NCBI GenBank assembly: GCA_010405405.1
Contig: MU004230.1
Coordinates: 1,088,627 to 1,152,626, forward strand
Length of the DNA stretch: 64,000 nt
Direction of reading: 5' to 3'
Source: Microthyrium microscopicum
Taxonomy: Eukaryota
Part shown: piece after piece, positions 10,660 through 16,608 of the stretch
Layout of the letters: the number at the start of each line of letters is the position of its first letter
Numbering within the stretch: position 1 is the stretch's first letter
Program-made: the position numbers and the translations under genes
The notes under the pieces: generated by a model
Seen by the model: only the letters and a program-made list of their open reading frames with translations
Databases searched by the model: none
What the model was told of the DNA's origin: nothing

Positions 10660-12570
10660 ATGAATCGCCTTCCGCAGCTGCATCTTTCTGCCTGGCCATC
10701 TCTAAAGCAATATCCCGCGACCTCGTTTGTCTTTCGCTTTCTCTCTATACCCAATATCCTCATACTATTATGGCTTTATGTTGTTTACTGGAGCGAGCGC
10801 ACTGTCTTCACGAAAAGTATACAAGAATGCCAATGGGATCAGTGGGAAACATTTGTCAGTTCTCATATTTGACAAGCCTCCATTCCTCCTGTATACTAAC
10901 GTGTATAGCCCGCCGAGTCATCACCCCATCATGTGGCATTTATTGCAGACCCTCAAATCGTGGATCCTCATACTTATCCGGGCCGACCATGGCCATTGTC
11001 TACGTTGACGGTCATGTATACCGACTCTTACCTACGCCGGACCTATAGCCTTATACAACAGCAACTCTATCCCGACACTACTGTTTTTCTGGGCGACTTG
11101 TTTGACGGTGGAAGAGAGTGGTCAACTTCTCATAGCTCCAGCCCTGAGAAACGATACAAAAAGTACGGCGAAAAGTTTTGGCACAAGGAATACGTGAGAT
11201 TTGCTGGCATGTTCTTCAAGACATGGTTGAATGCTGGTGTAATAGGTCGGGAAGGGCAACCCAGCAGACGACAAATACTCTCGAATCTCCCCGGAAATCA
11301 TGATCTGGGATTCGCTTCTGGAATTCAAGAGCCAGTTCGCAACCGGTTTAATGCCTATTTTGGAGACGGCAATTCGATAGATGTGATTGGTAACCATACT
11401 TTCGTATCCATCGATACCGTATCACTAAGCGCAAAGGAAGATGCTGGCGCAGAAGAGACTCTTTGGGAACCTGCGCAGAGCTTTTTGGACGGGTTTTCGG
11501 GCTCACTGGATCGAGTGCTGGGAACACATATGGCATTGCAACTACAAAAACACCGCGGGCCCGTCTATGATCACAAAGTGGTTGATACCGATGACTTGGA
11601 ATCGGACCAAATACCAGATAACTCTTTCAAAACAAATGCCTCTTTTCCAATGGTTCTTTTGACACATGTACCTCTTTACCGGGAACCTGGAACACCATGT
11701 GGACCAATGCGAGAAAGATGGCCACAATCCAAGGACGCCAGCGGCAAATTACTTGACGTCGATGACCGGAATGCAATCGTGGTACATCGAGGGTATCAAT
11801 ATCAAAATGTGCTTTCAGAAGACCTTTCCAAAGAAATTGCGTCTAAACTAGAGAATGTCAGCCATGCATTTTCCGGAGATGATCACGACTACTGCGAGCT
11901 TGTTCATCGTAGATATCCCTCAGCTGGAAGTGGCATCCGAGAGATCACAGTCAAGTCAATATCCTGGGCTATGGGAGTGAGAAAACCAGGATTCCAGCTA
12001 TTGAGTCTTTGGAATCCCATCAACGAGGAAGGGGCATCAATCAAGCAAGGTGGTGAAACTGAAGGCACTTTACAGACAAAGCTCTGTCTTCTCCCAGATC
12101 AACTAGGCCTCTTCATTTTATATGCCAAAGTTCTTGCATTTTCTCTGATCGTCCTAGCGACGAGAGCAATGTATCTCATGTTACACCCTGAGCTATCCAC
12201 TCTGGGACTGTCTTCAGAACCTCTTCTGCCTCTTGCACGGTCCGCTTCACAGTCCGAAATTGAACGAGCTGCTAGTTCCAGTTCCGATGATGGTTCTGGT
12301 GCATTAACGACAAGGTCGCGACTCTCAGTCAAGCAAGAAGGTGTGAAGTCGAGAGGCGCCAGTCCCAAACCATCTTCTGGATACGGTCTTCCCGCCGATC
12401 AGTACATTCCTCTTTCTTCGAAACAGGCACCATCGAATATTGGCACTAATACTATTCCACAAAGTCGGTTCAGAGGTCGCCAAATGTTTGTTCAAGAGTT
12501 TCGGTGGAGTTTATTCAAGGTAGCTCTTGTCGTCTTGCCCTGGTACAGCTGGCTGTTGTATCGTGGATAG
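10660..12570 (+). CDS. CDC1: Cdc1/Ted1-like Mn-dependent metallophosphoesterase (GPI remodelling); one intron (~10856-10908)
   Basis: ADPQIVD, GDLFDGG, PGNHD, THVPLYR, SGDDHDYC calcineurin-like motifs; N- and C-terminal TM segments. Confidence 0.88.
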
Positions 12571-12813
12571 AAGTACAGTTTGGTTGAGTTATTTATCAGC
12601 ATTTGTGGCGTACGGCTTTTGGATTGCATTTGGGCGGTGCTTGACATCACATGAATGCATAAGCGCATGTACTATTATCACTGTAATTGACGGAGATGTT
12701 ACCTCTAGGAGTACACCAATACAGCATTTGGCCAGTGGTATCTACCGTCTTAAGACGTACGTCAGACATTCTCAAGCCTTTCATCTCTAGAGTCATGACA
12801 CTGGATTAAATCA

Positions 12814-13527
12814 TCAACATGGGTCCGTTGTGGTCCTTGAAATCATGAGCAATCCTATAACCATGCCATACATTCCTTCGCAAGTCAGCCAAACCGTCGA
12901 GAACGCTTCATCTTAGGTACTCACCCAGAACTTCAGAGAAGATCTGCATCAACATCATTCCAATAAACAGCCTTGGCTGCTGTGTACATCCTCTGACACC
13001 TGCATCTCCAGTAATACCAATAGTGAATCCAGCGGCCAGAGACGAGATCCCGACTGACAGGCCAGCTCCAAGGTGTATAAATGCGTTGAACATGTGTGTT
13101 TCAGGCTTCATGGAGTTGGCAATCATGACGGAAACGACAAGCCCGTAGATGGCTAGAACGGCTGCCATTACTATTGGGATGCAATCTGTCTTTCTTCAGT
13201 AATGCGTACTTTATCTGTATGGTGATGAGCCCACTCTGTATCACTAGATTCGGTCGTATAACACCCGAGGCAGCGATGCCAATGCCTGATTTCGCAGTGC
13301 CATAGGCGGCTCCGAGACATGCGAAGATGATTGCACAGGCACAGCCTAGACAGCTAAAGAATGGCTGTATGCTGTTAGCAACACGATTTATTGAGCAAAG
13401 TATATGTTTCTCTCCACCAGTGGCGATGACTACACATACTGCATATATAGGACTGTTTGGTATATTCGTTAGCTGATACTCAAGCAAGAAGAACCAATGG
13501 ATAATACCAAACATCAGATGGATACAT
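12814..13527 (-). CDS. V-ATPase V0 proteolipid subunit c (Vma3/Vma11 family), divergent; 5 exons
   Basis: Spliced product MYPSDVCPIYAPFF...[11 protein letters not shown]...IYGLVVSV...GDAGVRG.QQPRLF...IFSEVLGMYG...DPC; proton-carrying Glu retained. Confidence 0.9.
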
Positions 13528-14748
13528 GACTGCGTATCTCCAGGCCAGGCCAACACACGGACAGGAAGCGAGACCAACGTATGCGTTTTCAAGTTGAGCA
13601 GTATCTTAAATAATCTTGAAAATCAACGCATTTCTCCTCAAATGCCTCCCAAAGTTAAGTAATTCTGCTGCCTGATATGCGCCTTGTAAGAGCGAAATCC
13701 GAGCCAAGAATGGTCCTTAAAATATCTCAGCGATTCAGAGACTGCGATAACATTGAGCCAGGTCGCTGCCTAAAAGCTAAGTACTTCTCTATGAAATTTT
13801 ACACGAGCGATACTTGGTTGGATAGGCACTTCCGTCTTCTGCGTGGCAAGGCTGAAGCCTTGTGGAACGGCCCACAATACAAGGTAACGTTCAGCTAGAG
13901 CGATATTCTCTAAGCTATAGTGACATCCTTTTGACTAGAGTATTTCTGTAGGAAGCCAGACTTACTCAGCACTATATTTAACTGTTGAATAGCATTAATA
14001 CCAAATAAACTATTCAAACAACTTGCTTGACATGAGGAAGCACAGTGCTTTAGGATTTTTTATGTGAATAAACTGACAACCTGAATATGACTCTCTACGT
14101 TTTGGCAGGATCACCAAGTCCAGTACAAGAATATTTCATACTTTGTGTACATTTCAAATTTATAGCCTACGGAACAGTCTCACAGGTCTCAGAAATTGAC
14201 CAGCCGGATGAGGCGAGGTTGGATCTGCAGGTCCCACAGCCGGAAACAGACCCCACCACAACAGCGATATTGCACAAAGCCGATGTTGAATAGTGTTGGT
14301 CGTTTTATTTGGTAGAGTGGTGTCGCCTGGAATAAAGCTTCCAATTGTTCCACTGGTGGAATATTGTATGATACTCTTGCTGTGGTGGAAAGACAGCAAT
14401 CGATAGATTCAAACCATCAATGTGCCCATGATACGAGCAATGTAAGATAATAAGGAAGCATGCCACAGCAGACAATCAAAACAAAGAAAATTCTCATTGA
14501 AAAATTGTATGGTGAGAAAAAAACTCAAAGCCCCACCTGGCCACTTCAACGGTTCAACCCAAGGGCAATCTGAAAATTTGGGGCAGATTGGCAGAGGTCC
14601 TTGCAAAATCACGGCACGTCACTCGTCACGCAACGACAAACCTTTCCACCAGCAATTTTTTCTTGCTCTTCTCTACTAATTCCGCCATCTCCCATCATTC
14701 AATTACCTCCCTTCCCATCAGTGGTTTTCCCAACGAGTCGCCGCTCTC

Positions 14749-15024
14749 ATGACAAGAGCACCAACAATCTTCACTTCCCAGGTAAGCCAGACGTCCTCCC
14801 ACCGCTCTTTTGACATGAATTCATTGGCAAACCCCGCCAAAACCCTTATCTCACTATCCGTTTTCACCCTTATTCATGCTCGCCGCTGTTAGCTTCGTTA
14901 GAAGTTCAATTGACTGACTGTATTATGTAGGACTACATCTCTGGTTGGTCTTTTCCCGCTTTGTCGGTGACTCTGAATACTAACTTCATTCTTTGACCAC
15001 GTCTGGAAGGCCTCAGTAAACTAA
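14749..15024 (+). CDS. Arginine attenuator peptide (AAP) uORF of CPA1/arg-2; exons 14749-14781, 14931-14943, 14996-15024
   Basis: Joined exons give 24-aa MTRAPTIFTSQDYISDHVWKASVN, collinear with Neurospora AAP MNGRPSVFTSQDYLSDHLWRALNA (D12, D16, W19 kept); lies directly upstream of the CPA1 ATG; second intron ends in TG. Confidence 0.92.
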
Positions 15025-15102
15025 AACACCCCACAACAACCCGATCCCGCTTACTACTACAATAAATCAATTGACGATACAACAAATCGATTGAACATCA
15101 AG

Positions 15103-16608
15103 ATGCTTTCCCTTTTCCGAACCCGATGTGGCCCAAAGGCCTCGAGTGCCTTTGGCTCTATGGTTCAATCCTCAGCTCGCGTCCGATACATGGCAACTGT
15201 CCAAACAACCACAACTGGTCGTGTACCACAGCTCACTCGACCGAAAGGAACTCCTATATCTCGTGAACGTGCTACTTTGACTATCAAGGTAAGACTGCGT
15301 TGACCACGCTTGACATTGGCATTAACTGACTTGGCATAGGACGGCCCCATCTTTCACGGCAAATCCTTTGGAGCAAAGGCCAACATATCCGGTGAAGCAG
15401 TTTTCACTACATCCCTGGTTGGATATCCCGAATCAATGACAGACCCCTCATATCGTGGACAAATCCTCGTCTTCACCCAACCCTTGATTGGAAATTACGG
15501 AGTGCCATCTTCTGCTCGCGATGAGCACGGCCTGCTTCGTTACTTCGAGTCTCCAAATATTCAAGCTGCTGGCATCGTTGTGTCTGATGAAGCAGAACAT
15601 CACAGCCATTGGACCGCCGTTGAAAGTCTAGCGGACTGGTGTGCTCGGGAAGGAGTTCCAGCAATTTCTGGAGTCGACACCCGAGCCATCGTAACATACC
15701 TGAGAGAACAAGGTTCATCTTTGGCTCGATTGGCTATTGGTGAAGAATACGATGCAGATGAAGATGAGGCATACATTGATCCTGAAGGTATCAACTTGGT
15801 CAGACGGGTTTCTACAAAAGCACCTTTCCACGTGGCATCAAACAAGGGCGATCTACACGTTGCTTTGCTCGATTGCGGAGTCAAAGAGAACATTCTTCGA
15901 AGCTTGGTTAGCCGAGGAGCATCTGTAACAGCTTTCCCATTCGATTACCCGATCCACAAGGTGGCTCATCACTTTGATGGTGTTTTCATTTCCAACGGAC
16001 CGGGTGACCCAACCCATTGTCAGGATACAGTTTACCACTTGAAGAAGCTGATGGATGACCACGAACAGCTTCCAATCATGGGAATCTGCATGGGCCATCA
16101 GTTACTTGCCTTGGCAGCCGGAGCCAAGACGATCAAGCTCAAGTATGGAAATCGAGCTCATAACATCCCCGCATTGGATCTGACGACCGGAAAATGCCAC
16201 ATCACTTCGCAGAACCACGGTTATGCGGTTGATGCTACTTCGCTTTCAGCAGAGTGGAAAGAGTATTTCATCAACCTCAACGATTCCAGCAACGAAGGCA
16301 TGATCCATAAGACACGACCAATCTTTTCAGCACAGTTCCATCCAGAAGCAAAGGGTGGACCGCTTGATTCTGCTTGTAAGTAGCATGCATCATTGGCAAA
16401 TGACCAAATACTAATTCTTACAGATCTGTTCGATGCCTATATGGAGAGCGTCTCAAAATACAAGCAGTCGAATGCAAAGTTTCAGAAAGATAACAAGCCT
16501 TCGCCGCTCTTGGTTGATTTGCTCAGCAAAGAGCGAGTGGGCGTACATCCAGGTCTTCCAGATTTCCATGGACATGCAGCTGGCATGGTGGAGGCACAGG
16601 CGGCGTAG
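15103..16608 (+). CDS. CPA1: Carbamoyl-phosphate synthetase, arginine-specific small (glutaminase) subunit, mitochondrial
   Basis: [41 protein letters not shown] (catalytic Cys), [19 protein letters not shown]; introns ~15289-15339 and ~16377-16422. Confidence 0.97.

Follow-up and report, generated by a model that had tools for sequence, protein, structure and literature searches.

An AG at the acceptor end of an intron is among the firmest rules of splicing. The leader of the CPA1 gene of Microthyrium microscopicum, within the window (the whole 64,000-nucleotide stretch of DNA that was analyzed), holds an intron that ends in TG, and its removal determines whether an upstream open reading frame (uORF) encodes an arginine attenuator peptide (AAP). 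The locus therefore raises the question of whether the TG acceptor is actually used, and the answer draws on the layout of the uORF, the junction seen in an RNA contig, the letters of the DNA, and the ends of the orthologous introns in related fungi.

An AAP uORF in the leader of CPA1

The gene downstream of the uORF is CPA1/arg-2, encoding the small subunit of the arginine-specific carbamoyl-phosphate synthase. Its protein matches the Pfam families CPSase_sm_chain (PF00988, 1.5e-43) and class-I GATase (PF00117, 7.8e-49), and it has an N-terminal extension upstream of intron 15289-15339. This intron and the following one, 16376-16423, are both GT-AG; the first is confirmed by the RNA contig X5 and the second was read from the sequence only. 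Between the stop codon of the uORF and the CPA1 ATG at 15103 lie 80 nt. The features of the locus are listed below, X5 being an RNA contig and X3 a DNA contig.

14749 to 14781, plus strand: AAP uORF exon 1, the ATG at 14749 and 10 codons, ending TSQ; read from the sequence and covered by X5
14782 to 14930, plus strand: uORF intron 1, GTAAGC...TAG, phase 0, at the Q11/D12 boundary; missing from X5
14931 to 14943, plus strand: uORF exon 2, a 13-nt micro-exon with DYIS and the first base of the D16 codon
14944 to 14995, plus strand: uORF intron 2, 52 nt, GTTGGT...TTG, U2-type with GT-TG ends; missing from X5 by exact length bookkeeping
14978 to 14984, plus strand: branch-site consensus TACTAAC; its branch A, 14983, precedes the acceptor G by 12 nt
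14994 to 14995, plus strand: TG acceptor dinucleotide, with T at -3 and A at +1; identical in X3
14996 to 15022, plus strand: uORF exon 3, the remainder of the D16 codon, HVWKA, SVN, and the stop TAA at 15020-15022; covered by X5
15008 to 15016, plus strand: nearest downstream AGs, an AAG ending at 15009 (+14) and a CAG ending at 15016 (+21); candidate helper or competing acceptors
15103 to 16608, plus strand: CPA1/arg-2, exons 15103-15288, 15340-16375, and 16424-16608

Intron 2 reads TCTTTG at its end, with 14995 as its last base, and both its donor (GTTGGT) and its branch site (TACTAAC) are U2-type. Moving the two cuts one or two bases leftward (GG..TT or TG..TT) would leave the mRNA identical, and only the GT..TG placement has a normal donor. 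Two other accounts of this intron were considered and rejected. Introns of the U12 type, which are removed by the minor spliceosome, have the consensus donor RTATCCTT and the consensus branch site TCCTTAAC, neither of which is found here. A canonical intron on the antisense strand fails as well, as the reverse complement gives CA..AC.

The first AGs past the branch site are the AAG at 15009 and the CAG at 15016, both within conserved codons. Splicing to the AAG would shift the frame and yield a 33-aa product, splicing to the CAG would keep the frame and yield a 17-aa product that lacks the conserved core, and retention of the intron would bring in a stop (TGA, 14994-14996). An earlier note on this DNA had given these coordinates and alternative products, all of which proved correct against the sequence and its translations.

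With both introns removed, the uORF resembles the AAP uORFs of N. crassa arg-2 and S. cerevisiae CPA1: it has 24 codons, lies about 80 nt 5' of the CPA1/arg-2 start, carries the core DYIS plus DHVWKA, and precedes a gene with the CPSase_sm_chain and GATase domains. A particular feature of the uORF in the window is its division by two introns, with a 13-nt micro-exon between them and TG at the end of the second; the S. cerevisiae CPA1 uORF is not known to contain an intron.

The junction in the RNA and the TG in the DNA

X5 stems from a run with organism label B, and 0.77 of the sampled words were present in it. Its contig comprises 5578 letters at a depth of 929.7, and is placed at 14400-14782, then, following six unplaced letters, at 14990-15286 with one mismatch, and finally at 15338-16000. 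The contig departs from the genome at 14781/14782, which is the end of exon 1. Since it also omits the GT-AG intron of CPA1, X5 represents a spliced transcript.

Four candidate mRNAs were rebuilt from the window and compared with the layout of X5. The model joining 14943 to 14996 is 1349 letters long, exactly the span of the X5 record, and contains one mismatch, as X5 does. The other models differ in length from these 1349 letters, with 1335 for the AAG acceptor, 1328 for the CAG acceptor, and 1401 for intron retention. The mismatch of the 14943>14996 model falls at 14993, where the end of exon 2, TCTCTG, is set against the end of intron 2, TCTTTG. Count and length agree exactly, and from the model we infer that the single mismatch of X5 sits at this same position. 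In X5, the 13 letters of exon 2 are made up of the final aligned G, the six unplaced letters, and another six that were placed with one mismatch on 14990-14995. In the X5 transcript, exon 1 is thus followed directly by the micro-exon and the micro-exon by exon 3, which leaves the attenuator peptide intact. The earlier note had named use of the TG acceptor as one option, and the X5 layout sides with it, fitting 14943>14996 and none of the three other models. The TG form is the only one assembled in X5, in evidence that is at the level of contigs, which drop rare forms, hide minor isoforms, and carry no information on efficiency.

A false junction could in principle have arisen through template switching by reverse transcriptase or through misassembly. 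Non-canonical junctions are frequently artefacts, according to the part of PMC7072748 drawn on here, and the two cut sites do show a short direct similarity (TCTCTG and TCTTTG). The bases actually shared at the junction, however, number only two, and an accidental join would have had to restore exactly the frame conserved in 69 relatives, at the position of the orthologous intron, in a contig with a depth of about 930 that also contains two ordinary splices. A junction absent from every read should, moreover, not be able to appear in an assembly of 31-letter words. We thus regard an artefact of this kind as very improbable.

On the DNA side, the X3 contig (Logan assembly) has a mean word depth of 953.8 and 0 differing letters across 14400-16000. 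X3 is one of four DNA runs of the same sample, all of which hold every sampled word of the region. The window itself probably derives from this sample, and the support that X3 gives to the TG is therefore not independent. Nevertheless, identity at a depth of about 954 makes a slip of the original assembler unlikely, and the assembly error that the earlier note had listed as one option is accordingly disfavored by this contig, possibly the window's own source, with the same letters.

Two further runs carry a third organism label, C. X6, a low-depth DNA run, contains two short contigs identical to the window, at 14792-14963 and 15093-15325, and is missing 14964-15092. The depth is 2-3, and the identical stretches take in uORF intron 1 except for its first ten letters. 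The X6 sample seems to contain small amounts of the same fungus. In X7, no contig matching the region was found.

Intron 2 itself lies outside X5, and the genome from which X5 was transcribed could carry AG at that place. This opens another explanation, namely that the RNA strain has a normal AG, and that the TG of the window is a private mutation or error that blocks splicing and leaves a broken, arginine-blind uORF. The labels are compatible with such a difference, X5 being assigned to organism B and the DNA runs to organism A, and the end of intron 2 is not visible in the X5 contig. Yet, apart from the mismatch described above, X5 is the same as the window throughout about 1,340 placed letters, including about 350 letters of the fast-evolving leader, and the TTG is reproduced in X3 at its depth of about 954. 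Further evidence on this explanation comes from the relatives.

The uORF and its introns in relatives

The query for a scan of metagenome contigs was the first 240 residues that CPA1 exon 2 encodes, and it yielded 80 fungal loci with 79-90% protein identity. Even the closest of these loci have only about 74% DNA identity to the window in CPA1, and the leader matches amount to stretches of 31-47 letters at uORF exon 3, plus a single 44-letter match across exon 1. The core of the uORF was found in 69 of the 80 loci; in the 11 loci without a located core, the contig mostly ended too near the gene.

An intron at the same place as intron 2 (phase 1, in the Asp codon) is present in 58 of the 80 loci, representing 44 distinct sequences, and the micro-exon is conserved there. 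All 44 distinct introns end in AG (30 CAG, 12 TAG, and 2 AAG), leaving the window as the only case of TG. Their donors are GT in 43 and GC in one. In two loci (L002 and L064), a TAG stands 5' of exon 3 and exon 2 was not located. For intron 1, most relatives have an NAG acceptor immediately 5' of the DY codons.

Intron 2 is missing in 11 of the 69 loci with a located core. Six of these (L003, L018, L026, L055, L061, and L079) are short contigs whose uORF of about 24 codons is complete and uninterrupted, and look like spliced transcripts. The remaining five include long genomic contigs. In four loci (L063, L065, L074, and L077), intron 2 seems to have been lost and intron 1 kept; in L063, the frame upstream continues through an intron-like stretch, and in the other three, the frame 5' of the DY codons lacks the expected peptide. 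The single GC donor belongs to L078 (about 773-850), the sole GC-AG intron among the 44 distinct sequences, and the peptide core of this locus is more diverged.

The G of the acceptor is the same base in all orthologues, and the window differs from them by T in place of A at -2. Judging by this comparison, the TG is a lineage-specific change at -2, not a conserved device, and most simply explained by A to T at 14994. The earlier note had also considered a recent mutation, and in the evolutionary sense this is supported by the AG of all 44 distinct orthologous introns. It had further suggested that an A dropped out of TTTAG. The branch A lies 12 nt from the acceptor in the window, which is also the most frequent distance in the relatives (14 of 44), and as this distance is already the modal one, a substitution explains the sequence more simply than a lost A does; the loss is thus the less likely of the two, and neither is provable. 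The exact heptamer TACTAAC occurs in one of the 44 relatives. The spacer between branch site and acceptor is made of pyrimidines at 8 of 9 positions in the window (0.89), compared to a mean of 0.62 in the relatives. The downstream AGs are also found in relatives with normal acceptors.

These comparisons bear on both sides of the suggestion that the RNA strain has AG. The AG of 44 out of 44 distinct relatives speaks for it, as do yeast and human data, detailed below, in which a U at -2 is normally unused (PMC2374985, PMC12707134, and bioRxiv 10.1101/212811, in the parts drawn on here). Against it, the leaders of relatives match that of the window by short exon-sized stretches at most, and X5 follows the window's leader far beyond such stretches. 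The codons of exon 3 are also intact and no decay is seen, with 21 of 24 residues as in the uORF of a relative. On balance, we consider a strain difference or private error unlikely.

The peptide itself can be compared in the same way. The 24-aa product of the 14943>14996 junction is identical at 21 of 24 positions to the uORF of L055, and the products of the other three splice models agree with this relative at 13, 13, and 14 of 24. The uORFs of five relatives match the Leader_CPA1 family (PF08252) at 41-54.9 bits, with a cutoff of 18.5; the window's membership in this family is indirect and runs through its 21/24 identity to L055, one of these five. Among the 69 relatives, W19 is found in 69, D16 in 67, and H17 in 62, counts to be read with the fact that the search pattern itself demanded part of the core.

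In N. crassa, D12N abolishes the arginine response (PMC7038982, in the part drawn on here), and a review citing Spevak et al. 2010 lists Asp12, Tyr13, 'Lys14', and Trp19 (PMC3130931). The earlier note had named D12, D16, and W19 as required for stalling. Asp12 and Trp19 stand in the review's list; D16 is missing from that list, in the portion of the review used here, and is replaced by Ser or Ala in 2 of the 69 relatives. One of the two is an intronless uORF on a 21-kb contig (L004:2590-2661), which has Ser for Asp at position 16 and matches PF08252 at 45.7 bits. In the other (L046, about 2585-2660), intron 2 ends in CAG followed by CC, so that the split codon encodes Ala and not Asp. These two loci suggest, as far as their sequences go, that either D16 is not strictly needed or their uORFs are inactive. 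In six further loci (L052, L053, L054, L056, L057, and L059), exon 3 encodes Gln in place of His17, and the C-terminal tail differs. For the window, we infer that the peptide would stall ribosomes.

Proposed mechanism and splicing precedents

The explanation that we favor, and consider probable, is that an A to T change arose at -2 and that the U2-type spliceosome still joins the exons at the old position, leaving the attenuator intact. In this scenario, the leader is that of a filamentous-fungal CPA1/arg-2 gene, and its AAP uORF is cut by two conserved short introns that flank a 13-nt micro-exon. The -2 base of the second acceptor would then have been altered in this lineage, giving TTG in place of the relatives' YAG, and the major spliceosome would ligate at the old position to produce an mRNA with an intact attenuator peptide. 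CPA1 would probably remain arginine-controlled. The acceptor may be picked by its position at the exon-ligation step, 12 nt past a perfect TACTAAC and behind a pyrimidine-rich spacer, while the AGs 14 and 21 nt downstream may aid the early recognition of the intron, as has been proposed for human TG-AG tandems. Taken together, the exact branch site, the pyrimidine-rich spacer, and the modal 12-nt distance could offset the weakness of the acceptor.

Structural and genetic work in yeast gives a measure of this weakness. In the post-catalytic spliceosome, the acceptor G pairs with G1 of the intron and the A at -2 with the branch adenosine, the latter pairing being the structural reason given for the AG rule (bioRxiv 10.1101/212811), and a U modeled at -2 brings a stronger distortion (Fig. 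S6 legend of the same preprint). In reporters, a UUG acceptor shows a classic, strong exon-ligation defect, and the Prp8 mutation Q1594A does not improve UuG, as described in the parts of PMC12707134 and bioRxiv 10.1101/212811 drawn on here. The intron in the window resembles the yeast ACT1-CUP1 UuG mutant, having an A to U change at -2 of a YAG acceptor behind TACTAAC. It differs from this mutant in that its correctly ligated product is the assembled transcript.

Human TG acceptors have been verified in 36 genes, always with an AG no more than 28 nt away, a pyrimidine at -3, and a purine at +1 (PMC2374985). The AG was proposed to define the intron early, leaving the TG as a possible choice at the second step. 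In the sections of that paper drawn on here, human AG>TG mutants activate neighboring AGs instead of the TG, natural TG sites are never the sole acceptor, their orthologues are never AG, and some have tissue-specific ratios. Like human TG-AG tandems (GNAS, TSPYL2; Szafranski et al. 2007), intron 2 has a U2-type donor and branch site, T at -3, and A at +1, and its AGs at +14 and +21 fall within the 28 nt of the human rule. Unlike them, its TG lies at the AG position of 44 out of 44 relatives and is the sole form in the RNA assembly.

In fungi, the annotation of Ganoderma lingzhi includes 22 GT-TG introns beside 89,855 GT-AG introns (PMC11590231, Table 1). The intron in the window likewise is a fungal intron with GT-TG ends. 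Unlike the genome-wide list, as given in that table, the present case comes with an orthologous AG in every relative found and with a functional frame that fixes the junction to the base.

The earlier note had raised a possible splicing switch, an extension of the favored explanation that would add to it and not replace it: the proportions of TG and AAG/CAG splicing may vary, for example with arginine, producing both arginine-sensing and arginine-blind mRNAs. The presence of AGs at +14 and +21, the dependence of human TG acceptors on an AG within 28 nt with tissue-specific ratios in some of them (PMC2374985, in the same sections), and the loss of the conserved core from the CAG product are all compatible with regulation of this kind, although no observation at this locus supports it. 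However, X5 shows the TG form only (in contigs, which drop rare forms), the TG is unique against 44 distinct relatives and hence no conserved device, and the downstream AGs are conserved codons that also occur where the acceptor is normal. Nor is any structure predicted around the sites: the fold of 14931-15060 has -15.7 kcal/mol (z +1.33), with 183 of 200 shuffles as stable, and we rejected an RNA structure that hides the downstream AGs or presents the TG. A regulated tandem therefore appears improbable to us. The same fold of 14931-15060 showed no sign of paired stem-loops of the Ire1/HAC1 type.

AAP uORFs and TG acceptors are each already known, the latter from humans, Drosophila, and one fungal annotation, and the case in the window is an unusually clear example of a rare exception in splicing. 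Its unusual point is that the TG lies exactly at the AG position of every relative found and that the TG form is the one assembled. The introns of AAP uORFs may well have been described already; a 2007 study by Hood et al. is said to treat the AAP and intron evolution in fungi. We found no publication that describes an AAP uORF with a TG acceptor, which is weak evidence of absence, as Hood et al. 2007 lay outside the comparison.

Two more far-reaching claims can be formulated, and we consider it doubtful that one or the other holds: that TG is a constitutive, efficient acceptor of intron 2, having replaced AG at an orthologous site with function kept, or that a TG-AG tandem gates arginine sensing. 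A constitutive TG would run counter both to the human data, in which TG never acts as the only acceptor and never has an AG orthologue (PMC2374985, in the sections drawn on here), and to the yeast UUG defect. It would also imply that the acceptor in short fungal introns is set mainly by the distance from a strong branch site. If the tandem were real, splicing would determine whether a CPA1 mRNA senses arginine.

Independently of these claims, an intron that must be removed exactly to yield a 24-residue regulatory peptide apparently tolerates, at its -2 position, a naturally occurring change of A to T. The conserved frame pins the junction to the base, which makes this an easily testable case. 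The locus, where a 52-nt intron combines a perfect branch site with a spacer of 12 nt and is followed by two AGs, offers a compact natural substrate for studying UG ligation. What is known of the arginine control of CPA1 is left unchanged by the TG, and gene callers that insist on AG would miss or break this AAP uORF.

A minor observation concerns the remainder of the X5 contig, which extends 3654 letters upstream of 14400 (about 10700-14400 of the window). This part, for which overlapping transcripts or read-through may account, links the CPA1 leader to one or more neighboring transcribed genes, with ORFs at 10933-12570 on the plus strand and 13101-13592 on the minus strand.
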